Assembly: GCA_030248215.1 (NCBI GenBank)
Contig: JASANG010002365.1
Location: forward strand, 434,001-498,000
Direction: 5' to 3'
DNA: 64,000 nt
Source: Enoplolaimus lenunculus
Taxonomy: Eukaryota
The notes below the pieces were generated by a model. That model did no database searches, was not told the DNA's origin, and was given only the letters and a program-made list of their open reading frames with translations. Both the position numbers and the translations under genes were made by a program. Positions 9,749-64,000 of this stretch are shown in pieces; within the stretch, counting starts at the first letter, position 1; every line of letters starts with the position of its first letter.

Positions 9749-10039
9749 GGCCCATGTAAAGATCAAAGGCGGAACGTTTTTCTGTGTGACTAGAAAAGAG
9801 TAAGCTTAAAGCATTTGAGTGATTATTTGCTTTGTTTAGCCTTAGGCTTAGGCTTAGAAATATGCTCATTCTTACGCTTAGGCTTAGGCTTAGGCTTAGG
9901 AATATGCTCATTCTTACGCTTAGGCTTAAGTTTAGGCTTAGGCTTAGAAATATGCTCATTCTTACGCTTAGGCTTAAGTTAGGCTTAGGCTTAGAAATAT
10001 GCTTATAATACTGTTCCGCCCATGTTCTTTATATTGGCC
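9749..10039. mobile_element. MITE with GGCC termini, internal TTAGGC repeats and perfect 8-bp TSD
   Basis: AAATAGTG at 9741-9748 and 10040-10047; GGCCCATGTAAAG...ATATTGGCC. Confidence 0.88.
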
Positions 10040-10693: not shown

Positions 10694-12679
10694 TTAACAA
10701 CAAAAACTTTTCAAGTCTTCGTACGAACATCCGTCAAGACAGCACATTTGAACGATGCCGCGTTTTGTTGTTCCGGTCGCCGTCTCCAATTTGGTATGCG
10801 GTATTTTTTGTCTTTGATCTGGTTTCCAGTCCGCAGTCGAGTCGTTGTTGTTGGTACGCGCGTCATGCCGTTGGTTACCGTCGCCGTATCGTCCATTAAT
10901 ACCAATCAAAGTTTCGTTGTTATAATGTAACGCTGAATAACGCAAATTCGTCGGTTCGTTTGTTGGTTTTTTCGCGTTCAAAGCCATCAAACGATACCGA
11001 AACGAGTTGTGATTATTAATTTTCGTTTGATTTCTATCTTCAGGTGAAGCAGCATCGCTTGATTCAGCGCTGTCGAGAGTTACGGTGATTCGTTGAGGAT
11101 CGTTGTGGTTTGTATTGGGTTCGTCGGAGCCAATCGTGTGACGCGGAACCAAATTATCGAGCCATTCCAACGTAATTGGTGCAAGACTTGATCCTAAAAA
11201 AATTAATGTAAAACGTTTAAAAAAACTAATTGACCACTTTAAAAACTACGCTCTCAAAGTTAGTGGCTTTTTTTATAATTTTCCTCCCACAGTGTAAAAA
11301 TGTTGTTCAGGCCTGAATTGTTCTCTGGTCGTGTCTTATTTGTCACCCCCAAAAATGGAGTTGTTGACGAAAAATTACGACGATCAATGCAACATTTAGC
11401 AGAATCGTTTTTGACACAAAACCAAAGCTTTGATGTTTATGACCCTCGGTTACCAAATTCAAACGGTAAAAATCGGTTTTGATTCATTATTTTAATTTTC
11501 TCATGGCGTACGCAAGATAAACTGTACGATGCATTATTAAGTGTATACGCAGTACAAAAAAGACTGCATAATACAAGAGTACTATAATGACCCGAATAAG
11601 AGGGGGGAGCGATATTTATTTGGCCTCTCCAGAGGGTTCCCACCTGGTATTCGGTTACGGACTGCTATTTATTTTCAACCAGCCATCGGTCACTCTTCGT
11701 TACTGATGTATCTTCGGTATTGTAACTATTCGTTGAATTAAACACTTGTTTGTCTTGCGTCAATAGCTTGAGCGATAATGCAAGGTTAAAAACTTAAGTA
11801 CGTTTTAAAGTTTCGAACTCAAATTTTTTGGTCGTGGAGTCATTTATGCATTTACAATGAACGATAATTGACATTTATGGACTCTAATTCGGGTTGACTC
11901 AATCCGCTTACGGACTCGTATTGATACGGACTCCTATTGATTGAGACACAAAACGTGGGTCTTCCTTTTATTACCCCCTCTTATTCGGCTCAATACACAC
12001 AAAAAAGTATTTCTGAATTTATTCAGAAAAGTGCTTTCTGTGGCAAATCTAAAAAGTTTTGCTGATATTTAAAACAATTTTTCTTAAAATAATTGAAAAA
12101 CGTTTATTTTCAGACTTTATTTCAAAACATTTTTTGAAAACGTTTCTGTTGTAACAGAAATACTTTTCAAGTGCACCATATTTCTCAAATGTAAGAAATT
12201 TTTTCTTAATTATCAGAAATACTATTTTGAGCGTACAGTGTGCCACTCTTGGGGTTCCGCATGGTACATAACGTACCCGGCACGCGTTGCGTTTTTGACC
12301 GAGTTCCCTCTTATTTAGAATTGGTTACAACCGGTGCGAACCACGACACTTTATGTATCTGGCATCAAAAATACTGCGTTTAGCGTTTAAAGGCGTATTG
12401 CCTGTAACAGCGACCTCCCTCTCTACTTATGAGGGTATCATGCGCTCTTGGTACAAAACTCACACATGAAACATCAACACTCGCAAGTGATTTAAACTTA
12501 CGTTTTGCTGAATTTCCACCAGCCCAGCAGGTGTTGCAAATTTTTTGGGCCAATTTTACAAGACGTTTGCCGCAAACACGAAGCGACACGGCGCCTTGAG
12601 GGTTTACAATCATAAACACAGCAACGGTGAAAAGTATAATTGTCGATTTCGAAAGCCGAATTTGACCAATTATTCGCAT
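10694..12679 (-). CDS. Insulin-like peptide precursor, INS-1-like (8 Cys), 225 aa, two coding exons
   Basis: Exon 12679-12502: signal peptide plus B chain LRVCGKRLVKLAQKICNTCWAGGNSAK, then gtaagt donor. Exon 11193-10694 after a tttttag acceptor: completes KR, then a ~142-aa C peptide, KR and A chain GIVQMCCLDGCSYEDLKSFCC*. Shows the CGxxL...C and CCxxxCx8C insulin signature. Confidence 0.93.
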
Positions 12680-12769
12680 GATTTTACAAAGTTTAATGTT
12701 TATGATAAATAAAATATGAAATATTAATATAAATCTTAAAATAAACGCAAAAAGTGTTAAAACTATTTC

Positions 12770-12928
12770 GGCCCATGTGACTTTAACGGACGTCAAGGAT
12801 TCTGGTAGGTCTATAAAAGAATAGGTTTAGATTCTAGATTACATTTTTGTACTTAGGCTTAGAATGCTTTGGCTTCGGCTTATGAATACGCTTAGTCTAC
12901 AGTTACGCCCCTCAAAGTAACATTGGCC
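12770..12928. mobile_element. GGCC-ended TTAGGC-bearing MITE, ~90 bp upstream of the insulin-like ATG
   Basis: TIR GGCCCATGTGACTTT / AAAGTAACATTGGCC; flanks ACTATTTC and ACAATTTC. Confidence 0.8.
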
Positions 12929-19588: not shown

Positions 19589-22500
19589 CCGCTTTTAAGC
19601 AGGTTTATTGCGCAGAAAAATATTGCAATTTTGAGTAAAATATCACACGTTTGCTTTTCTCATTTTATAAATAACTTGAGTCAAACCCAGCCAGTTAAAG
19701 TTCGATGAAAAGTTTAAAACAAAAATAAGCTTAAAGATAATTGTGCTTATTTGATAACAGTCAATGCGACATAAATTTGTTAAAATTTGTGACAAAAGTA
19801 AATCGAATTGCGTTTAAGTTTTCAATATAACGACTTAAATCTGTCTCAAACAGCTGTTATAGTTTGAAAATAATACAACCATAACTGTTTGTTTTCTGCA
19901 TTGAACAGTGCTTGAAGATTTTGATATTTGACAAATATTACTGTAATATTGTGCAAGTTTTTCTCGTCATGAAAACCATGAAAACTAAATGTTACAGCGA
20001 ACTTTTATGCGGTGTTCATGTTACCAATTGTAATTCAGGTTTGCTTCGATTTGCGAGAAGAAAACCGGAAATATCTTCTGAAAATGCAGTACTTTGAGTG
20101 ACATTCCACTGAATTTGTGCAAATTAGACGCAATATCGTAAGTTGAAAATATATTATATGATATTCACAGACAATACCTCTAATATTATATGATATTGAA
20201 AAACAAAAGGTGACCTACATATGATAATAACAGACAAATACGAATTATAGTATTTGATATGGGTTTATAAATAGACAAATTGTTAGCCAATAGTCTAACA
20301 GGGGCAAAACATGTCCCAAGTTGCCCCAGTTATAACTGGAACCCCACATTAAAACTGTGGCAGCAGGGAACACGTTTTGTCCATGTTGATTTGAGATCAA
20401 CTTAATATGTTGTGATCTAAAGCGGATATGACGACAAAATGTGAATGTCACAGCCCATTGGCTGCAAAGCCTAGCTATGAAGTGAAAATTGCATACAAAT
20501 AGACATACAGCACATGATACCACGGGATGTTTATGCGAATATCATATGATACTCCAAAATTTTACTAAATATCGCATGATATTGTGCACAACAATGTTAT
20601 TTGTGTACACTAATGAAACAGTAAAAATTAGATATTAGGAAGCTTATAGTGATTTTAAATGCTCACTTACTTTCTGCCAGGGTACAACCGGAGGTCTTCC
20701 TCCGGCCGAAATTCGGCCTCCGGCTGCGGCTCCGTCTCCGGTAGAATTTTTGCCGGAGGTTCCGGCAATTTCGGTAGTAAAATTTTGCATAAGTTTGCAA
20801 AATTTATCTGTTTAGCGCGTTATTTTTTTACTTTCGTCACAGTTTTCAGGAAAGCATTTTCGATATTTCGCACAAAATTAGCATGAAACCAATCGACTTA
20901 ACAACATATTGCGATAAATTAACTAATTAACTGTCGTTTTGCTACCTAATTTCGCCTAACATCCGGCTCCGGCTACGTCCAGTTTCAAGACCTCCGACTT
21001 CGGCTCCTGTATTTTCACTTCCAGTTGCACACTGTCTTCAACGTTTCTGTTTCGGGCGGAAGTTTCCCCTAAAATATATTACTAAGTACAACAAATTCAA
21101 ACTTCGCATTTTAGTATCGTACAAGGTTTACGATAAGTTTGCAAATATTGTCAAACATGTCACGTGATACTGACAGACAATTTTTCTCGAATATCATAAT
21201 TCTTGCACAAACAGTGAATGTCACATCAGGATAGCAGACAATTCAAACTAAACTTTGACATGCTTGTCCAATGCGGGAGCAACAGAGATGAAAATACTTT
21301 TTGATCCAAAAATTTCAAAACAGTGAAAATTTTTTCCCACGTTTGCCCCACTTTTTCCCAGTGCCGATCGGCCTGTCTCATAGGACCCCAATGACAACTT
21401 TTACATCTCAGGGGGAACCATGCTTAATAATTCCAAGAAGGGTTGCGTTGCAGTTGTCGTGCGGCGCTACGTTTCAGCTAAAATCTGTTTCAATTTGAAA
21501 TTTTGGTGTTTTTTCTGCGTTACATTTACTTACTTTTGTGCAAACAAAATTGATAAAATCAGCTAAAACTTAAAATTTCAAACAAACATGCTTTAGAGTG
21601 ACGCAACGTCAGTTTGTTTTACAGAAAAATTTGTCAAAAATCAACAATTTCAAAGTATAATTTGTTTCAGGTGTTAGCGGTGTGATATGTAGGCAGTAAA
21701 TAGGCTTACAAGTGAAATGTTTGCCGCAGTTGATTCGCTGTTTACGATTTCTGTTATAATTGAGTTCATGAAGCAATTTTAAAATAATTAACAATTTTGA
21801 TTAAGAAAAATAACGGATTTTTACTTTTACTTTTACTGTCCATGTAGTTTTAGGGACGTCCAGGTTTCTGGCGGGTCTATTAAAGAGTAGGTTTAGATTC
21901 TAGATTACATTTTTTGGTTAGGCTTAAGCTTAGGCTTAGGAATGCATTTTTGCAACGCTTAGGCTTAGGCTTAGAGATACGCTTAAGCTACTGTTACGCC
22001 CCTTAAAGTAACATAATTTGTTATTTCGAAACTTTAATCAGTTTAAAATTTTCCAGGAAACAAGCAATCAGGCTTAGCAAAAGTGTATTTATTTTAATGT
22101 TTTTAAATTTCTTTTGCTATTTTGACAAATATAAAAATTTATACATCGCAAAACGCAATGCATTATTTCAACAATTTTAGATAAAACAGTGACTTTAATG
22201 TTCGCCTAAAAAACTTAAAGGTCAGTGGTCATCGTAAACGCCTCCCACAAGTGAGACTGGGGATCGAATGTTACCTTGAAATTACGTCTCATTTGAAATT
22301 AAAAATATTCATGTGAGAAAGGGTTAAAATCATAACTTTAAATTACATAAAAATACAAAATATTCATGCAACGAATGGTTTGAGATAACATTCCTGTGAC
22401 GTTTGATTGATCTCGCAGCAGTCGACAATCTTGTTGCAATTACACAACCGAATCAGTCGTTTAATATCAACAGGTTCAAGGACGATTAAAAACAAAACTA

Positions 22501-22699
22501 AAGTAACTTTCTTTAAATTGATTCAAATCGTAATCATTACGTTCTTTCAACGAATGCTTTTTATTAGTAATTTTTAACAAAAATCCAATCTCTTGTCTTT
22601 TTCATAAAGTTAGGTTTTTTAAAACTCATTTTATTGAAATTTATTTCAATTATCTTTTAAATTCGAGCTTAGAATTTTCATAAATTAAAATTTTGTCAA

Positions 22700-25600
22700 T
22701 GGGGAATACACTATTTTCGACACTATCTCTTGGACAGAAAGTTTGTTATTCAGACCGATCACAACCCATTAAAATGGTTGATGTCGATGAAAGACACTTC
22801 TCTTCGTCTTACCCGCTGGGCGTTCATGTTACAAGAATACGATTTCATAATTGAATATCGAAAAGCATCGAAGAATCAAAATGCAGACGGCTTAAGTAGA
22901 AATCCATGCTGTTCTGTAATCACATACAATAAGCCAACCCGTAATGTAGAATTAACGAATACTGAACAACTTCAGGATCAGTGTTGTGTTAAGGTTAGGA
23001 ACCACTTAGCAGGTAATAAGCTATTGATCTTTCATGAAAAAATACCTTTAAAGCATTTCTTCATTTTAATGGTTCGCTGTTCTGCAAAGGGAGACAAGAT
23101 AATTTGCGATACGTTGTTCCCGTTGCACAAAGAAAAACAGTTTTTTTTAAAAATCATAATTCTCCGGTTGCAGGACATCTAGGCTATGAAAAATGTTACT
23201 AAAAATAGCTCCACGTTATTACTGGCCGAAGATGTCCGTTGATATCAGGAATCACTGTTTTTCCTGTAGGTTATGTCAAACACGTAAATATCAACCTAAA
23301 TATGGCAAAGCCCCGATGATACCAATACCCATTTTTGCAAGACCATTTGCACTTGTGGGATGTGATGTAATAGGTCCTTTCCCCCAAACTGTTCGAAGGA
23401 ATAAATTTATATTAGTATTTACCGATTATTTCACTAAATGGTGTGAAGCATAAGTTGCAAAAAGTTGCAAACAATCCATTACCACCCGCAGACTGACGGA
23501 TTAACAGAAAGGTTCAATCAAACGCTAGTGCAAATGTTATCCGCATACACAGATCAGACGGGCCGAAATTGGGATTGGTTTCTTGATCACGCTCTATTTG
23601 CGTACAGAACCTCGGTACAAAAATCGACAGGATTTTCACCGTTTGAAATGTTATATGGCAGAAAACCAAGATTGCCATCCGATATTTGTGTGGACGAGTA
23701 CACACACCAATTTGAAAACTTGACAGAATATACAAACAATTTAGTTGAATCTATACAAAAAATTTATAAAAAAGCCAGTCAGCATATACAACAAGCACAA
23801 CAAGTACAGAAGCAATATTATGATGCACACGCAAAACCGCGCTATTTTAATATTGGAGACCATGTTTTTTTAAAAATAGCACCTCCAAAAGTTTCCAAAT
23901 TCGGTCCTCGCTGGTACGGACCGTTTGTGATCCACTATAAGGTAGGTTACCCTGGATCGAAAGTCCTTGCCACCCATCCTTGGCGAGTACCCCTTATGGA
24001 TTGATCGAAGCCGGCTACTGTGTCTAGTTATGCTACTCCGCCCGATCATGTCCGGGATGGGTTTCCCATCTCGCGCTCGCAGTGTATGCACCATCTGAAC
24101 GCGAATACTTATCGTCACCGGACTATTAAATAAAGTATAGCGCATAATTCCGTTTGGTAAAAGTTACTCGCCGGCTGCAAGCCGGCGAACGCTTCCAGAA
24201 TACCATTCGTCCTGAAAAAGATTTGGGGCTAGGAGACTCCTATCCTCGCGCATTCCTGCCTCCAGGTAAGATTTCTGACCACCGCGGCAAAACTATATTG
24301 ACCATCCAGTGGGCAGGCAAAATTCGGAGTGCGGGGAAAAACAAATTCTTGGTAAAAAGGAGTTGGTCAAAAAGGAAAAAGAAAAATGGGAACCCGCACC
24401 GCCCATTTCTAAGGCTGTAGAAATTTTTACTATATGCAATAGTCATTCCATACTCAGGGCCCAAAAATCACCCGGGAAAAGAAAAATGAAAAAGGAAAAA
24501 GGAAAATATCCATCCCTAGTCCGGACACGATAACAAATTCCGACCCAGACTTGCTCGGTGCGACCCGCGCAGGTCTGAGTCCGAAATAACAACAACCATC
24601 CCGTCCCGCGGGAATCCAACAGAAATAATAGCGCGCTAATTCGGTAAAATAGGAATCTCAGAGTCAGTACTGAAACAGAATTTTCGAACATTCTCAAAAT
24701 CGTCAGGCTACTATCCCTTACAGAATTGGACACCTGCACTTTATTATGAAGTTATAACTCGGTAACACATTATGCATTATTCAATATATCCGTGTCATGT
24801 ATAAACGTTTAGCCATACCTAATGTTCCTAGATTCCACCTACAAACTCGACTAGAACATGGCTCTTTACCTGTTCCGCCTCTCGCCGTAGCGTGGTCTCC
24901 CATGCTGCGAGGTCTTCCCGAGCCGGTGGACTTGCCGCCCACTGGCCCCCTTCCGGTGTTGCCGGACGAAACTCTTCAGCGAGTGGATTCAACCGGGCCG
25001 ACGTTTTAGGTGACACTGGAATCGTTTCCGACGTTGAAGACGCCGACTTCGTCGGTGGAGGAGTTCGCGGCGGGCTATCCCGAGCATTTTGGTCCATGTT
25101 TGAGCCAAGTTCGTTGGTTTCGTTGTTTGAAATAAAAATTTGAACGGTTTCGACGTTGCTAATAGGTAAATTGCATCAGCCGAATTAATACACTTTATTT
25201 CGTAATGAACCTGAATGCAATTGGGTTAAAACCACGGTTGAGTCGAGCTAGACTCAACCGGAGTCTAACCCAACTCGAAAATCGCTTTCACAATTAATTT
25301 TTCTCCTAGATACACACGTCGAGAAATTTCAATTGGAAAACCGCGTACAGCCACCCGTACCGGAACAGCCCGTACGGCGCTTGTACCGGCCACCCCGGTA
25401 CGAGCGCTAGTTTTCACCAAAAAGGAAAACACAAATTACGAGTTTACAAGAAACAAATCAACCGTCAAACCCAGCAGTCACTTAGCAATACGTTATTTTT
25501 ATGGAAACTGAGTATTCTTTCAGTGGAATTTTCAAAATAAACCCATAATCGCCATCCTGATAATACATTACAAAGAACGTTAACACACCATTTTTAAAAA

Positions 25601-26478
25601 GCCAAGAAACTAACAACAAGCTAAGAAAACTCACACAACTACTAGCTAACTAACTTTATTCAATACAAAAATGTTAGATAGTTTTCCTCCACATTCAACT
25701 AAACTCAGACGAAAATAGCGTCATTCCGTTGGAAACTAACTAAAATAAAACCGCAACTACTCAAATTTATCCTCCCTTCGGCTCTTCAAAGAACTAGAAA
25801 CTCGCCAAAACACCTTAGACCGCCAAATTTGAACTCAACATTTCAAATATTTGCAAAACAAATTCCAAATAAGTTCAAACAACAAAGCGCAACCGCCAAT
25901 CAGTTCACAAAACAGTATTAACGTGAACTCAATAATTTATAACATTCCACAGGTAAGTTTCAAAAATATAAATAACATACACCACATACTTTGCCCTGAA
26001 AATTCAAAATTTCAAAAATTCCAGTTTCGATACCACTAATAACATCCTAATCAAGCCGGCAAAAGACAGAAAAGACCACCCCGGGCTAAAAAACACTCAA
26101 ATCCAGCTCAATTGAACCTTTTCTACTCCTTTCACTCATCTGCGCTCTCCCTTCATACCCCTAGATCTCAAATTTGAAACCACCAAACCCCACGCCTACG
26201 GAGTACTACACCCAGGGGTCACACACTTGGATCCCCCAGGTGAATACCCCGCTACGGCTCCAAAAACATTTCAACCAGTGGTTTTCCAACCCGACACGCT
26301 CAAATTTCGCGCCTCTCGGGTTTCCCCAGAAAATTACAACTCAGCGGAGTCACGGATCCAGTGGTATCCCTACATCCACAACCAAAACTCGGATGTTAAT
26401 TATACAATTAGCAAACTCGAACGACAAAGTCCCAAATTTGTAGTTCATGTTAACAATTTGAAAAGATATTTTGAGTAA
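22700..26478 (+). pseudogene. pol: Degenerate Ty3/gypsy pol 3' part (RNase H C-terminus plus integrase), interrupted at 23936-26374
   Basis: TDHNPLKWL...RLTRWAFMLQEYDF...NADGLSR (RNase H); HNSPVAGHLG...CRLCQ (HHCC zinc finger); VGCDVIGP...DYFTKW; YHPQTDGLTERFNQTL; SPFEMLYGR; WYGPFVIH joins NQNSDVNYTI...VVHVNNLKRYFE* once the insertion is removed. Has frameshifts, a stop, and a deletion of the integrase core near 23455. Confidence 0.92.
23936..26374 (-). mobile_element. 2.4-kb solo-LTR-like insertion (TGTAGGG...CCTTATA), copy 1, inserted in the gypsy integrase
   Basis: TCCAC is duplicated at 23931-23935 and 26375-26379; removing the insert restores the integrase frame; an inverted homolog lies at 34678-36808. 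Confidence 0.88.
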
Positions 26479-26526
26479 AAATAGGTTTTCTAATACCGGA
26501 TCTAACTTTATAGGAAATTATTTTAG

Positions 26527-27459
26527 ACCAATATCAATCGAATTGCATTCTTTAGTCGACATTACGAATATCGATGGCTTTCAAATTTTTACGATACCGC
26601 AATATATTTCAAAGAACAGACCTACAAGTCTAGTGAACAGTTATATCAGTGCATGAAAATAACATTCGCCTTAATGTTTTGCGTTCATTTTGCGGTTGAC
26701 AAAATTTTGGAATGCGAAAGACTTTTAAAGAACTGTAAATTAGCTCAACATCCGGCTGATTCAAAGAAAGCTGGGGCTAAATGTTTGAACAACAATGAAA
26801 AATTTACCGAATTATGGAATAAGCTAAAAGTACCATGCATGCTAACGGAATTATTTCTGAAGTTTTCTCAATGTATGAAACTTAAGAAGCTACTGTTGGA
26901 TACAAAGGATATAGCGCTTTACGAAGCAAATCCTTTCGATGGTTTTTGGGGATGCAAAGCATCACGTTTTCAAATATACTCTCCGAGTTGGGAGCTAACT
27001 GCTCGAAATGAGCTTGGAAATTGTTTACAAAATGTACGAGCCTATTTGCGTGGTGAAAACATTCAGTTTCCGCAAATATGTCTGGGTGATGAATTCATCC
27101 ATAGTATTAATCAAAGTGTAAAAAACACACAATATATTTATCTTCCAAACTTTGATTTACGCCAAGTTTTTGAAGTGGTGACACTAATTTCGTTTCCGGG
27201 TATAACAAGAATGTAGGTCATAATGATTTTACCCAAGACATGTACTAATCCCAACAGAGTTAGAGCAGTTTCGCACGTTACAAATACGTTGCGAACAGCA
27301 TGTTGCAATCTTTATGGCACTGAAGTGACTATACTTCGTATACCTTCTGCTGCAAACCTTAAATTCTGTAATTCACAAAAAGTTGAACGCCTTATTGTGG
27401 AGTTTAATAAAGCTTTAGACGATATTACTAAAACGTTTTCTCACATTTTTATAAATTAA
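26527..27459 (+). pseudogene. Retrotransposon-borne NADAR (YbiA/DUF1768-like) domain plus SGNH-like domain ORF, with one internal stop at 27214-27216
   Basis: Frame open from 26527, after ttattttag: WLSNFY...YKSSEQLYQCMK...W...KFSQ..LKKLLLDT...LYEANPFDGFWG...RNELGNCLQNVR, matching NADAR motif order. Then ICLGDEF...VTILRIP...IVEFNKALDDI..FI, which is SGNH-like (lower confidence). Confidence 0.85.
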
Positions 27460-27477
27460 ACTTTGACCAGGAAGTCG

Positions 27478-27645
27478 TGTGAGCATAGGATCCGACTGAT
27501 TTGTAATTAATAACCTGTTGCTTGGACCGGTGAAAGAAGGAGTAACTGGTCTAGGTGTCGGGTTTATTACGCCATATTTATGCTTTTAGAATAAAATACT
27601 CTTAGCATGTGACTCGGTTCCTTAGTTTGGGTTGTGGTTATCACA
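27478..27645 (+). mobile_element. Candidate 3' LTR (168 bp) of the gypsy element
   Basis: Starts TGTGA, ends TCACA, contains AATAAA at 27590-27595, and follows a weak purine tract (aggaag) just after the last ORF. No partner LTR in the window. Confidence 0.55.
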
Positions 27646-27826
27646 CTGAATCAATTCTCGTTGCAGCACATTTTTATAAATGGGATAGGAAAATGTGATA
27701 AAATTTTAATTTAAGAAAATTCTAAGCTCGAATTTATAAAATAATTGAAATAAATTTCAATAAAATGAGTTATAAAAAACTAACTTTATGAAAAAGACAA
27801 GAGATTGGATTTTTGTTAAAAATTGC

Positions 27827-30800
27827 GGCCAATGTATAGCACAGGGGGTTCCAGTTTTCTACGGTGGAAAACTTATAACCAGGAGTGCAGCGCAGCCACT
27901 CCTGCATGACGGCTAAATTTTCCGCTGATTTGGTGGGAAAATTAAAAAAATTTAGTGCCTAGATTTTAATCTGAAGCATAGGTTTTGGTTGGAAAACGGG
28001 AAAAGTGGAAAATTCTAATGCCTAGATTTGTCCCCTGGGTTGGTTGGGAAATCTGAAGCATGGGTTTTGGTTGGAAAACGGGAAAAGTGGAAAATTCTAA
28101 TGCCTAGATTTTTCCCCTGGGTTGGTAGGGAAAATCAGAAGCGTAGGTTTTGGTTGGAAAACGGGAAAAGTGGAAAATTGAAATGCCTAGATATTTTCTT
28201 GGTCAGTAAGAAATATCTGAAGCAAAGGTTTTGGTTGAAAAGCGGGAAAAGTGGAAAAGTGGAAAATTCAAGCGTAGGGCATAGGTTTTGGTTGGAAAAC
28301 GGGAAAAGTGGAAAATTCTAATGCCTGGATTTTTTCGCTGGGTTGGTAGGGAAAATCTGAAGCATACGTTTTGATTGGAAAACGGGAAAAGTGGAAAATT
28401 CCAATGCCTAGATTTTTATCCTGGGTTGGTAGGGAAAACCTGAAGCAAAGGTTTCGGTTGGAAAACGGGAAAAGTGTAAAATTCTAATGCTTGGATTTTT
28501 TCGCTGGGTTGGTAGGGAAAATCTGAAGCATACTTTTTGATTGGAAAACGGGAAAAGTGGAAAATTCCAATGCCTAGATTTTTATCCTGGGTTGGTAGGG
28601 AAAATCTGAAGCATAGGTTTTGGTTGGAAAACGGGAAAAGTGGAAAATTTTAATACTTAGATTTACCCTGGCTTGGTAGGGAAAGTCTGAAGTATAGATT
28701 TTGGTTGGAAACGGGAAAAGTGGAAAATTTAAAGGCCTAGATTTACCTTAGGTTGGTAGGAAAAATCTGAAGCATAGGTTTTGGTTGGAAAACGGGAAAA
28801 GTGGAAAATTTAAAGGCCTAGATTTACCTTAGGTTGGTAGGGAAAATATGAAGCATAGATTTTGGTTGAAAAATGGAAAAAGTGGAAATTTTTATAGGCC
28901 TAGATTTACCTTAGATTGGTAGGGAAAATCTGAAGCATAGGTTTTGGTTGGAAAACGGGAAAAGTGGAAAATTTAAAGGCCTAGATTTACCTTAAGTTGG
29001 TAGGCAAAATCTGAAGCATAAGTTTTGGTTGGAAAACGGGAAAAGTGGAAAATTTAAAGGCCTAGATTTACCTTAGGTTGGTAGGAAAAATCTGAAGCAT
29101 AGGTTTTGGTTGGAAAACGGGAAAAGTGGAAAATTTAAAGGCCTACATTTACCTTAGGTTGGTAGAGAAAATCTGAAGCATAGTTTTTGGATGGAAAATG
29201 GGAAAAGTGGAAAACCTCAATGCCTAGATTTACCCTGGGTTGGTGGGGAATATCTGAAGCATAGGTTTTGGTTGGAAAACGGGAAAAGTTGAAAATTTTA
29301 ATGCCTAGAGTTACCCTGGCTTGGTTAAGAAAATCTGAAGCATAGGTTTTGGTTGGAAAACGGGAACAGTGGAAAATTTTAATACCTAGATTTTTACGCT
29401 GGGTTGGCAGGGAAATCTGAAGCATAGGTTTTGGTTGGAAAACGGGAAAAGTGGAAAATTCTAATGCCTAGATTTTTATTCTGGTTGGTAGGAAAATCTG
29501 AAGCACGGGATTTGGTTGAAAAACGGGAAAAGTGGAAAATTCTAATGCCTAGATTTCTACCCTGGGTTGGTAGGGAAAATTTGAAGCATAGATTTTGGTT
29601 GGAAAACAGGAAAAGTGGAAAATTGAAATGCCTAGATACTTTCTTGGTTTTAAGAGAAATCTAAAGCGATGGTTGGAAAACGGGAAAAGTGGAAAATTCA
29701 AGCGTAGGGCATAGGTTTTGGTTGGAAAACGGGAAAAGTGGAAAATTCTAATGCCTAGATTTTTCCCCTGGGTTGGTAAGGAAAATCTGAAGCATAGGTT
29801 TTGGTTGGAAAACGGGAAAAGTGGAAAATTCTAATGCCTGGATTTTTTCGCAGGGTTGGTAGAGAAAATCTGAAGCATAGGTTTTGGTTGGAAAACGGGA
29901 AAAGTGGAAAATTTTAATGCTTAGATATACCCTGGCTTGGTAGGGAAAATCTGAAGTACAGATTTTGGTTGGAAAACGGGAAAAGTGGAAAATTTAAAGG
30001 CCTAGATTTACCTTAGGTTGGTAGGGAAAATATGAAGCATAGGTTTTGCTGGGAAAATGGGAAAACTGTAAAATTTAAAGGCCTAGATTACCTTAGGTTG
30101 GTAGGGAAAATCTGAAGCATAGGTTTTGGTTGGAAAACGGGAAAAGTGGAAAATTTAAAGGCGTAGATTTACCTTAGGTTGGTAGGCAAAATTTGAAGCA
30201 TAGATTTTGGTTGGAAAACGGGAAAAGTGGAAAAGTGGAAAATTCAAGCGTAGGGCATAGGTTTTGGTTGGAAAACGGGAAAAGTGGAAAATTCTAATGC
30301 CTAGATTTTTCCCCTGGGTTGGTAAGGAAAATCTGAAGCATAGGTTTTGGTTGGAAAACGGGAAAAGTGGAAAATTCTAAAAGGCGTAGATTTACCTTAG
30401 GTTGGTAGGCAAAATTTGAAGCATAGGTTTTGGTTGGAAAACGGGAAAAGTGGAAAATTTAAAGGCCTAGATTTACCTTAGGTTGGTAGGGAAAATCTGA
30501 AGCATAGGTTTTGGTTGGAAAACGGGAAAAGTCGAAAATTTAAAGGCCTACATTTACCTTAGGTTGGTAGGGAAAATCTGAAGCATAGTTTTTGGTTGGA
30601 AAATGGGAAAAGTAGAAAATTTAAAGACCTAGATTTACCTTAGGATGGTAGGGAAAATCTGAAGCATAGATTTTGGTTGGAAAACGGGAAAAGTGGAAAA
30701 TCTCAATGCCTAGATTTACCCTGGGTTGGTGGGGAATATCTGAAGCATAGGTTTTGGTTTGAAAACGGGAAAAGTTGAAAATTTTAATGCCTAGACTTAC

Positions 30801-32049
30801 CCTGGCTTGGTAAAGAAAACCTGAAGCATAGGTTTTGGTTGAAAACGGGAAAATGGAAAATTTAAAGGCCTAGATTCACCTTAGGTTGGTAGTGAAAATA
30901 TGAAGCATAGGTTTTTGTTGAAAAATGGGAAAAGTGGAAAATTTAAACGCCTAGATTTACCCTGGGTTGGAAGTCAGCGACGACCAAATTTGATATATTT
31001 ATGTTTCCTCGGCTTTCCGGCCATAGCCAACAACGTCTTTAAAACAAATTATAACTTTTTTACAACCTTAAGGCGTCACTCAAAGCGTCGACTTTGTTAA
31101 CAGACTTATGTTCTGATAATACTGGGCCACTCGGTGGTATCTTGTTTTGACCAATCTTGTGCTGGGACTATCATAATCTGATATATTTAATAGTCATGTA
31201 TTATTTCGGGTAAATGCTCTGCTCATTTAGGTTTAACTATGTAAAGTAGATTTTGTTCCTTGCACTGTTCCGCTCCGCGGTTTCTTGTTTTGACCAGTGT
31301 CGAAATATATTGCCTGTTAGTTTGTAGGATGCAACCGGAGGTGAAAAATGCCAGATCCGGAGCCGGAAGTGAACAAAAGTAGCCGGAACCGGAGATGATG
31401 CCGCAGGTGAGGTGAAATCAGGTCGATGAAATGATATTTAACTTGTTAATTTTAGCAAATATCTGCTATGTATTGTTTAATCGTTCCATTGGAATTTTCT
31501 ACTTTTCCCATTTTCCAAACAAAACCTATGCTTTAGATTTTCCTTTCCAACCAAGGGGAAATCTAGACGTAGAAATTTTCCACTTTTCCCGTTTTAAAAA
31601 CAAAACCAATGCTTCAGAATTTTCCTACCAACCCAGGGTAAATTTAGGCATTTAAATTTTTCAATTTTCCCGTTTTCCAACCAAAACCTATGCTGCAGAT
31701 TTTCCCTACAACCAAGGGAAAATCTAGGCGTTTAAATTTTCCACTTTTCCCGTTTTCCAACTAAAACCTATGCTTCAAATTTTCCCTACCAACCCAGGAA
31801 TAATGTAAGCTTTTAAAATTTCCACTTTTCCCGTTTTCCAAACAAACTTTACACTACAGATTTTTCCTACCGAACCAGGGAATATGCACGCTTATGAATT
31901 TTCCACTTTTCCACAGCAAAATCTATGCCCGCGATTTTTCCTACCAACCAGTGAAAAATCAGGTCGTCATACAGGAGTGGCTGCGATGCACTCCTGGTAG
32001 TAAGTTTTTCACCCTGGAAAAGTGGAAACCCCTTATCTATACATGGGCC
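27827..32049. mobile_element. Foldback-type non-autonomous DNA transposon (GG...CC termini, 8-bp TSD, Merlin-like) with inverted subterminal ~68-bp arrays
   Basis: GGCCAATGTATAG... and ...CTATACATGGGCC termini with ~110-bp imperfect TIR; flanks AAAATTGC (27819-27826) and AAAATTAC (32050-32057); arrays at ~27970-30970 (+) and ~31490-31950 (-). No transposase seen. Confidence 0.8.
27970..30970 (+). repeat. ~68-bp tandem array (GAAGCATAGGTTTTGGTTGGAAAACGGGAAAAGTGGAAAATT...), roughly 40+ copies
   Basis: Directly visible periodic repeat with diverged subvariants. Confidence 0.95.
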
Positions 32050-32539
32050 AAAATTACTAATAAAAAGCATTCGTTGAAAGAACGTAATGATTATGATTTG
32101 AATCAATTTAAAGAAAGTTAGTTTAGTTTTGTTTTTAATCGTCCTTGCAACAAGATTGTCGACTGCTGCGAGATCAATCAAACGTCACAATTCCAAACTG
32201 CATTGGACGTTCACGCAAACAGTTGTCACCCCTACTTTAACACTTTAGTTTAGTTTGCCTACGCAATACTAAAAATTTCGAACAATTTGTTTACTCTATT
32301 GCATGTCAACTACCAAGTTCCATGGGCGTTTGTTTCTATTCCTAGCAGTATAATGAAATAATTGTTCGTATATATGTGTCAACTTATACGATCTTTAGTA
32401 TGATTTGTAAATTTAAATCATTAATCATGGCGGATGGCTTAAAATTAGATAATTTCAAAAAACTTTTGCGTCGGCGATTTAAAGCAATTCATTTGAAATA
32501 CGAAAAATATAAACAATAAACATTTAAAATGGATAGCAT

Positions 32540-34677: not shown

Positions 34678-36808
34678 TGTAGGGATACCACTGGATCCGT
34701 GACTCCGCTGAGTTGAAATTTTCTGGGGAAACCCGAGAGACACGAAATTTGAGCGTGTCGGGTTGGAAAACCACTGGTGGAAATGTTTTTGGAGCCGTAG
34801 CGGGGTATTCACCTGGGGGATCCAAGTGTGTGACCCCTGGGTGTAGTACTCCGTAGGCGTGAGATTTGGTGGTTTCAAATTTGAGATCTAGGGGTCTGAA
34901 GGGAGAGCGCAGGTGAGTAAAACTAGGGGAAAAGGTTGAGTTGAACTTGATTCGAGTGTTTTGAGCCCGGGGCGGTCCTTACTGTCTCCTATTGGCTTTG
35001 ATAGTATGGTGAAAATTATGTGGATTTTCAAATTTTTGAAATTTGGAGTTCTGGAGGTGAAATTTATAATATATATATTTTAAATGACTGGAATGTATTT
35101 GTGTGGATGTGTAAAGCGGTTATGTTAGTTTGATCTTGTTAGTTTTGAACTATTTGACGTTTATTTCGTATAATTTGAACTCTGTGAAATTTGTTATCTA
35201 ATATTTGAAATGTTGAGTTCAAATTTGGCGGTCAGAGGTGTTTTGACGAGTTTCTAGTTGTTTGAAGAACCGAAAGGGCGATAAATTTGAGTAGTTGCAG
35301 TTTTATTTAGTTGGATTTAACAGAATGATGCTATTTTGTCCGAATTTAGTTGAATGTGAAGAAAAGTTACTTTAATTCTTGGTATTGAATAAATTTAGTT
35401 AGCTAGTGATTGCTGTGCAAGTTTCTCGGCTTAGTTTTTAGTTTTCTAGTTTTCCTTTCATGGAATGGTGCGCTAATGTTTTTCTGCCTTTTCAACGTAT
35501 TATTCTGATGATGACTATGAGTTTGCCTTAAAAATTTCACCGGAGGAATATTTGGTTTTCGTCTAATGACATGGTTTTGGGTGAATGATAGGTGTGGAAA
35601 ATAAATCGGTGTTTATGGTAACTTCGCAGTTTATGTTTTCCTTTTTGGTGAAAATTTGCGCTCGTACCGGGGTGGCCGGTACAAGCGCCGTACGGGCTAT
35701 TCCGGTACGGGTGGCTGTACATGTTTTTCTGATTGAAATTTCTCGATGAGTGCATTTAGGCGGAAAACTATTTGCAGACGCGATTTCGAGTTGGGTTAGA
35801 CTCCGGTTGAGTCTCCCGGCTCGGGAAGAAGTAGCAGCATGGGAAACCACGCTACGGCGTGAGGCGGAACAGGTAAAGAGCCATGTTTTGGTCAAGTCTG
35901 TAGGTAGAAACCTAGGAACATTAGGTATGGCTCAATGTTTAAACATGACATAGATATATTGAATAATGCATAATGTAATACTGGGTTATAACTTCATAAT
36001 AAACCAAAGGTGTCCGATTTGATAAGGGATGCTAGCCCCTATGATTTTTGAGTTGTTTGGAAATTCTGTTTCAGTACTGACTCTGAGATTATTGTTTTAC
36101 CGAATTGGTACCATTGTTTTTGTTGGATTCCCGCAGGACGGGAATATTTCTGTTATTTCGGACCCAGACTTGCGCGGGTCGCTACCGAGCAAGCCCGGGT
36201 CGGAATTTGCTATGGTGTCCGGACCGGAGGTGCATATTTTTCTTTTTCCTTTTTCCTTTTTCTTTTTCCCGGGTGATTTTTGAGTGCTGAGTATTGAATG
36301 ATTATTGCGTATAGTAAAAATTTCTACAGCCTTAGAAATAGGCGGTGCGGGTCCCCATTTTTCTTTTTCCTTTTTGACCAACTCCTTTTTACCAAGAATT
36401 TATTTTTCCCCGCACTTCGAATTTTTCCTGCTCACCGGATGGTCAATGCAATTTTGCCACGGTGGTCAGAAATTTTACCTGGGGGCAGGAATGCGCGAGG
36501 ATAAGAGTCTCCTAGCCCCAAAGCTTTGTCGGGATAATCTGTGTTGCAACGGCGTTCGCCGGCTTGCAGCCGGCGAGGAACTTTTACTAAACAGAATTGT
36601 AGGCGACATTTTATTCAACGATCCGGTAGCGATGAAAATTTGCGTTGAGAAGGTGTATACATTGCGAGCCCGAGATGGGAAACCCATCCCGGACGTGATC
36701 GGGCGGAGTAGCATAACTAGACACAGTAGCCAACCTCGATCAAACCATAAGGAGTACCCGCCAAGGATGGGTGGCAAGGACTTTCGATCCAGGGTAACCT
36801 ACCTTATA
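34678..36808 (+). mobile_element. 2.1-kb solo-LTR-like insertion, copy 2
   Basis: Same termini TGTAGGG...CCTTATA; CTACA is duplicated at 34673-34677 and 36809-36813; ~330-bp internal deletion near 35815 relative to copy 1. Confidence 0.88.

Positions 36809-38935: not shown

Positions 38936-64000
<25,065 letters not shown>

Follow-up and report, generated by a model that had tools for sequence, protein, structure and literature searches.

A NADAR gene with an SGNH-like tail behind the integrase of a decayed Ty3/Gypsy retrotransposon in Enoplolaimus lenunculus

RESULTS

Features of the locus

The window, by which we mean the whole 64,000-nucleotide stretch of Enoplolaimus lenunculus DNA analyzed here (contig JASANG010002365.1), contains the 3' part of a Ty3/Gypsy retrotransposon and, behind its integrase on the same strand, a reading frame encoding a NADAR-domain protein, with two inverted-repeat arms enclosing both (Table 1). 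The element is a dead, decayed fragment. No gag, protease, reverse transcriptase, or 5' LTR lies within the 64-kb window; the RNase H remnant has no start codon and is severed by the inverted arm; and the integrase, in which the H2C2 finger, the first Asp motif, the Glu motif, and a GPY/F-type motif can be recognized when all three frames are viewed together, is broken by frameshifts and by an internal deletion within its catalytic core. An earlier, sequence-only reading had assigned the frame ending at 26478 to a Gypsy integrase, which is right as to identity, but no more than the final ~33 integrase codons are in that frame, and the remainder is 2.4 kb upstream, past an insertion. The inserted repeat has a second copy in the window, reversed (34678-36808) and with a 5-bp duplication of its own. 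This 2.1- to 2.4-kb repeat ends in CA, has no Pfam match in the one frame tested, and is possibly a long solo LTR or a nonautonomous element.

Table 1. Features in and around the Gypsy fragment (window coordinates)
Feature	Position	Strand	Evidence and remarks
Left inverted-repeat arm, ~300 bp, starts TGTGA	22395..22698	+	Self-comparison; ATTCC outside at 22390-22394
Ty3/Gypsy RNase H, C-terminal end, cut at inverted repeat	22700..22900	+	Pfam RT_RNaseH E 2.3e-14; Ty3 RT/RNase H 4OL8 E 4.6e-8
Gypsy integrase remnant	23170..23935	+	Pfam Integrase_H2C2 E 2.7e-9; Ty3 Gag-Pol 7Q5B E 3.3e-13
High-copy repeat, 2,439 bp, inside integrase, 5-bp target duplication TCCAC	23936..26374	.	Self-comparison, read depth
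Last integrase codons and stop	26377..26478	+	Pfam Integrase_p58_C E 3.1e-8
Possible splice acceptor (predicted): CTAAT/CTAAC branch-point-like words, TTTTAG	26490..26526	+	Motif only
YbiA-family NADAR domain	26527..27060	+	Pfam, fold, active-site alignment
Decayed SGNH/GDSL-like tail, one TAG at 27214-27216	27067..27459	+	Family-tail profile, motif alignment
Candidate 3' LTR, 168 bp, TG..CA ends, AATAAA at 27590	27478..27645	+	End motifs only
Right arm, inner part, 95% to left arm	27696..27824	-	Self-comparison
Right arm, outer part, followed by ATTCC at 32190-32194	32050..32189	-	Self-comparison

The arms delimiting this region (22395-32189) are 95-100% alike and low-copy, terminate in TGTGA..TCACA, and are bordered by a 5-bp direct repeat, ATTCC; the outer part of the right arm has been displaced by an insertion bearing an 81-bp satellite. 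That insertion (27825-32050), which splits the right arm, is made up of 81- to 83-bp tandem units in two opposed arrays. The arm-bounded piece looks as though it had been inserted as one unit, with ends that are LTR-like yet inverted, and it may have originated by capture by a TIR element, from aberrant cDNA, or through a local inverted duplication.

A 3' LTR, for which the sequence-only reading had named 27478-27645 as a candidate, was not confirmed. It has no partner in the window, the purine run preceding it is weak (8 of 12), and five different TG..CA pairs of at least 100 bp, each agreeing at 5 of 7 end bases, occur in the 237 bp searched. Because the fragment is dead, is enclosed by inverted repeats, and has no gag, reverse transcriptase, or 5' LTR, a 3' LTR remains unproven. 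The possible splice acceptor ahead of the NADAR frame consists of a TTTTAG, whose AG belongs to the stop preceding the frame and ends directly before it, and of words resembling branch points at 21 and 33 bases upstream; this reading is weak, since TTTTAG is common in the window (0.84 per kb per strand).

Elsewhere, the window contains an insulin-like peptide gene (10694-12826, minus strand), whose A-chain exon matches Pfam Insulin and ends with an extra CC, as well as an Ig gene. Exons resembling, by eye, a receptor guanylyl cyclase with a Gln/His-rich end occur at 51000-54300 and 38936-39517 (both minus strand) and have no Pfam match in the two frames tested. There is also a dispersed family of short repeats with runs of TTAGGC (e.g., 9749-10039 and 21836-22014). 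TTAGGC is the telomere unit of nematodes, and it occurs 82 times in the window versus 14 times for TTAGGG; together with the insulin-like and Ig genes, these runs suggest a nematode-like invertebrate.

The frame encodes a YbiA-family NADAR

The frame (26527-27216, plus strand) runs for 229 codons without a stop and opens 48 bp past the TAA at 26476-26478; in 2,000 shuffles of the 933-bp region, no frame of at least 229 codons arose. Pfam NADAR (PF08719) matches over its whole profile at codons 8-175 (26548-27051), with an E value of 3.4e-22 and a score of 79.9 bits against a cutoff of 35.1. A structural model built from an alignment of 72 sequences (mean pLDDT of 85; a single-sequence fold reached a pLDDT of 39.5 and was not used) most resembles the Phytophthora NADAR (PDB accession number 8BAU; Z score of 20.6, rmsd of 2.6, 163 aligned residues), followed by Escherichia coli YbiA (2B3W; Z score of 16.4), the two being far ahead of other folds. 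Foldseek returned a match at an E value of 1.5e-8, and among viral structure models, the best matches were NADARs as well. The sequence-only reading had described a stop-free frame 48 bp behind the integrase stop with NADAR motifs in a given order, all of which was confirmed, and the Pfam search and structure prediction that it proposed bear out the NADAR identity.

Excerpts of the paper on 8BAU (PMC11543638) name 11 residues that contact ADP-ribose or belong to the active site. The window protein is identical at seven of them (E43, K50, K75, W89, E125, D130, and W133), is conservatively changed at two (R93 and D86), and differs at two contacts (R79 to Ala and Y84 to Asn); these assignments use the paper's numbering, which, judging by the pattern of residues, is offset by two from the 8BAU chain. 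E37, K44, and E133 of the window protein are the counterparts of the catalytic E43, K50, and E125, and the position of R79 is variable throughout the NADAR-SGNH family described below. Presence of the last-strand Glu marks the protein as YbiA-type (by the part of PMC11125620 that deals with subtypes). We conclude that the frame encodes a genuine YbiA-family NADAR and that, judging from the alignment and the model, its active site is plausibly competent.

An SGNH-like tail and a family of fusion proteins

Past its single TAG, the same frame is open to 27459, a stretch that had been missed in the sequence-only reading. A HMMER search with the window frame yielded 1,133 representatives at an E value of ≤0.001, and the best 150 of these include eight uninterrupted fusions of a NADAR and an SGNH domain (ranks 1, 5, 6, 20, 58, 83, 113, and 140), three of which fall within the top 6 matches. 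The fusion homologues are 234 to 379 residues long, with the NADAR at the extreme N-terminal start and the SGNH/GDSL tail after it. The GDS, G, and GTN of blocks I, II, and III are invariant in all eight, and the His of block V is present in five, which are all that extend so far; Pfam GDSL matches two of the eight, both below the cutoff. The catalytic Glu, Lys, and Glu of the NADAR are kept in 7 to 8 of the eight, at 25 to 38% identity. Unlike the window frame, in which no in-frame ATG occurs before codon 43, these proteins start with a Met at the edge of the NADAR domain.

Seven of the fusions were chosen by eye, and a profile was built from their tails. Among 155 proteins, this profile recovers the eighth fusion at an E value of 1e-25 and ranks the window tail next (E value of 3e-4; best domain, 5e-3), followed by an unrelated protein at 0.19. 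In a profile comparison, the window protein aligns unbroken over 216 columns, from the NADAR through SGNH blocks I and II. The tail itself has Glu in place of the block I Ser and lacks the GTN of block III, and its frame stops before block V; its predicted fold is alpha/beta, matching SGNH enzymes with Z scores of 5.6 to 6.0 versus up to 6.7 for unrelated folds. With motif blocks missing and an unspecific fold match, the tail is best regarded as a decayed or remodeled SGNH relative and not as an intact esterase. On these sequence comparisons, the tail likely derives from an SGNH/GDSL esterase, and the window protein likely belongs to a NADAR-SGNH fusion family that we have not found described.

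All eight fusion homologues are singletons from contigs of 1.2 to 3.8 kb in read or metagenome assemblies and are known here as proteins only. Two of them have as their nearest ESM Atlas cluster (scores of 0.98 and 0.95) one with a length of 361 amino acids and 51 members, all NADAR and all eukaryotic, with Nematoda the commonest source, these taxa not giving the range of the family. Further searches added little. When homologues were sought by words from the window frame, none of 176 candidates passed; a search with the family alignment at 1e-20 passed 10 of 4,276, only two of which are family members; and a weak search of longer proteins passed 10 of 4,685, none with a reverse transcriptase or integrase domain. 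Insensitive pattern scans of viral contigs, 36 of 64 metagenome parts, and prokaryote genomes produced 98 loci, all generic NADARs, none of them with an SGNH tail or a match to the window pol. A quickly computed tree of 70 of 167 NADAR domains, in which 7 of 67 branches are supported, names no donor and speaks neither for nor against a single origin of the fusion family.

Two other arrangements of NADAR were encountered: four proteins (P0005, P0057, P0110, and P0156) have it at the end of a sequence resembling, by eye, LINE ORF1 (compare the oyster case below), and one (P0117) is an RNA-virus polyprotein.

A second, diverged copy

Contigs from three runs (two samples, one study), possibly of the same organism, were compared with positions 21800-28000 at 80% likeness, and the results given here concern 24 listed pieces, with 61,836 further pieces outside that list. 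Some of the 24 are nearly identical to the window (one has 5 differences over 430 letters), and others are diverged versions of each part of the locus: RNase H (60 differences in 354 and 55 in 421, or 83-87% alike), integrase (63 in 405, 84%), NADAR (88%, with 79 differences and a further 13 gap letters over 680), and the 3' end (84%, 58 in 373). The roughly equal divergence of all parts (83-88%) suggests a single paralogous copy with the same layout. No diverged contig among the 24 joins integrase and NADAR, and the diverged NADAR and 3' pieces each continue into unlike sequence.

Read depth over pol and over the NADAR frame is low and similar, and that of the nested repeat is ~100-fold higher in most bins. 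Counting only the best-supported rows, 8 of 15 listed differences over the compared region are synonymous, as are two of the three within the NADAR frame, numbers too small to reveal selection. Neither a repeat nor a duplication was seen at the junction of integrase and NADAR.

DISCUSSION

Our preferred reading of this locus, which we advance tentatively and at slightly less than even confidence, is that the frame is a decayed ORF3 of an invertebrate Ty3/Gypsy element, occupying the place of env, and that its product, a NADAR with an SGNH-derived tail, would erase guanine ADP-ribose from the RNA or cDNA of the element. LTR elements usually express an ORF3 by way of a spliced message (PMC5408684, in excerpt), and the product here would be a protein of its own, perhaps translated from a subgenomic RNA spliced at the acceptor-like site at 26526; the missing start at the domain edge could reflect either decay of the start codon or splicing of the gene. 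If a host or microbial transferase attached ADP-ribose to these molecules, reverse transcription or translation would be blocked, and the NADAR would counter this by stripping ADP-ribose off guanine bases so that the nucleic acid stays readable. The SGNH part may have served in targeting to the particle or membrane, a role proposed for esterases of other retroelements, its catalysis having presumably been lost in this lineage.

That the NADAR gene is part of the retrotransposon we regard as very probable. The sequence-only reading had already proposed that the gene is cargo, which position, strand, and the second, diverged copy of all parts now support indirectly, an intact LTR-gag-pol-ORF3-LTR copy forming no part of this support. 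The gene could instead be an intronless NADAR-SGNH gene of foreign origin (from another mobile element, a retrocopy, or an endogenous piece of RNA virus) that ended up behind a dead integrase by chance. Compatible with such an accident are the many nested insertions of the region, the presence of host NADAR genes in nematodes, the lack of a partner LTR in the window and of a bridging contig among the listed pieces of the second copy, and the fact that the fusion homologues are known only as proteins from short contigs. The 48-bp spacing, shared strand, and clean junction nevertheless speak against it, as does a second copy about equally diverged in pol and NADAR and, weakly, the lack of any NADAR-SGNH fusion at the 98 viral, metagenome, and prokaryote loci, and we consider chance adjacency quite improbable. 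Still less credible, to the point of being very improbable, is that the mobile unit is the arm-bounded piece, in the manner of a Ginger DNA transposon whose integrase is of Gypsy type and whose cargo is the NADAR-SGNH gene. Its inverted arms of ~300 bp, TGT..ACA ends, and 5-bp direct repeat invite this comparison, and excerpts of PMC2836005 give TGTNR ends as typical of Ginger and note that Ginger1 bears extra enzyme domains. By the same source, however, those extra domains are fused to the transposase, unlike here, and the duplications of Ginger1 and Ginger2 are 4 bp versus the 5 bp seen here. The RNase H remnant ahead of the integrase, cut by the arm and without a start codon, also argues against this, as do the low copy number of the arm and the diverged RNase H contig (that with 55 differences in 421), which extends past the cut point in the window by 164 letters on the upstream side. 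Membership in Ginger was rejected on the RNase H remnant, the 5-bp duplication, and the low-copy arms, the ends conforming to TGTNR.

If the gene does belong to the element, it is, by analogy, about as likely as not that it counters a host or microbial transferase that ADP-ribosylates bases. In the parts of the literature covered here, guanine ADP-ribose on DNA was cleared in vitro by every NADAR subtype assayed, such activity not being predictive of protection in cells (PMC11125620); NADARs also removed it from RNA and were inactive on ADP-ribosylated phosphate ends (PMC11833690), and some clear cytidine marks as well (PMC12945103). Guanine-modifying CARP-1 homologues occur among eukaryotes in bivalves, cnidarians, sponges, and other bilaterians (PMC12945103, in excerpt). 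NADAR and Macro domains seldom occur together in animal RNA viruses, where it has been proposed that they counter host ADP-ribosylation (PMC9503650, in excerpt). The activity on guanine marks, together with this proposal for RNA viruses, makes an eraser the most likely role of the window NADAR by analogy; against it stand the altered R79 and Y84 contacts, the absence of an identified host writer, and a published RNA-processing hypothesis. Under that hypothesis, in print for the NADARs of Gypsy and LINE elements (PMC12477816, in excerpt), the domain would still belong to an ORF3 of the element and would perform housekeeping in its replication cycle, such as processing or binding RNA intermediates or ADP-ribose by-products or, together with the SGNH part, assembling particles. 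In C. elegans, SNA-3, a protein with NADAR, takes part in trans-splicing (excerpt of PMC11125620), the fused type of esterase is thought to be active in RNP assembly or membrane transport (excerpt of PMC5408684), and the adenine and phosphate contacts are altered in the window NADAR. Against a housekeeping role stands the retention of the catalytic residues in the window copy and in nearly all of the fusion homologues, and the inactivity of NADARs on ADP-ribosylated phosphate ends argues against end processing in particular; we find housekeeping somewhat unlikely. Extending the preferred eraser reading to a widespread, old, largely nematode lineage of invertebrate Gypsy elements that swapped env for a NADAR-SGNH eraser, and thereby marks an undescribed anti-transposon defense by base ADP-ribosylation, is a broader proposition that we deem unlikely.

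NADAR domains now appear in retrotransposons at three places, namely, the N terminus of Pol, ORF1 of LINEs, and, likely here, an esterase-fused third gene. That one and the same eraser has been captured more than once suggests that the nucleic acid of invertebrate retroelements encounters base ADP-ribosylation, which would be an undescribed host defense. For assays, an ORF3 of its own is more convenient than a domain of a polyprotein, and eight natural NADAR-SGNH proteins exist.

The sequence-only reading had suggested that a NADAR in animal Gypsy elements might be undescribed, a suggestion that was too wide given the Gypsy NADAR published for Ectocarpus (PMC12477816); what we did not find in print is the separate, SGNH-fused gene of an animal. 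Neither a NADAR-SGNH fusion nor NADAR as an ORF3 was found in the literature searched (a scope outside which Repbase and subscription journals fall), and NADAR is not mentioned in PMC6338049 or PMC13524379. What is likely new is an animal element in which NADAR has a gene of its own, past the integrase and joined to an SGNH domain, this type of cargo itself having already been published.

Comparisons with known systems, drawn from excerpts of the papers cited, place the window protein as follows. The Phytophthora nicotianae (8BAU) and E. coli (2B3W) enzymes share its fold, its YbiA-type Glu, and most of its active-site residues, but they are stand-alone cellular proteins of 27 to 29% identity, and the equivalents of R79 and Y84 differ in the window protein. 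Parasite-borne NADARs are also known from the polyproteins of invertebrate RNA viruses, where they are proposed to counter host ADP-ribosylation (PMC9503650), and from phages, whose AdfN/gp30.3 is reported to do so (PMC11825919); these are not retroelements, no SGNH fusion was seen in them, and the phage subfamily has His where the window protein has Glu. An SGNH enzyme in the env position has a counterpart in bdelloid rotifers, in which a GDSL/SGNH esterase forms ORF3 of the LTR retrotransposons Vesta and Juno (PMC5408684) and one ORF3 fuses two enzymes, DEDDy and GDSL. The rotifer ORF3 is without NADAR, and its SGNH motifs are intact, as they are in the eight homologues, whereas those of the window copy are decayed. 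The closest precedents for a retrotransposon-borne NADAR of the YbiA type, with a function that is predicted only, are a single Ectocarpus Gypsy lineage, IV (e.g., Gypsy-12_Ec32), and the Tx1 LINEs of Crassostrea gigas (PMC12477816). There, the domain sits at the N terminus of Pol or in ORF1, respectively, whereas in the window it forms a separate frame past the integrase of an animal Gypsy element and continues into an SGNH-like tail.
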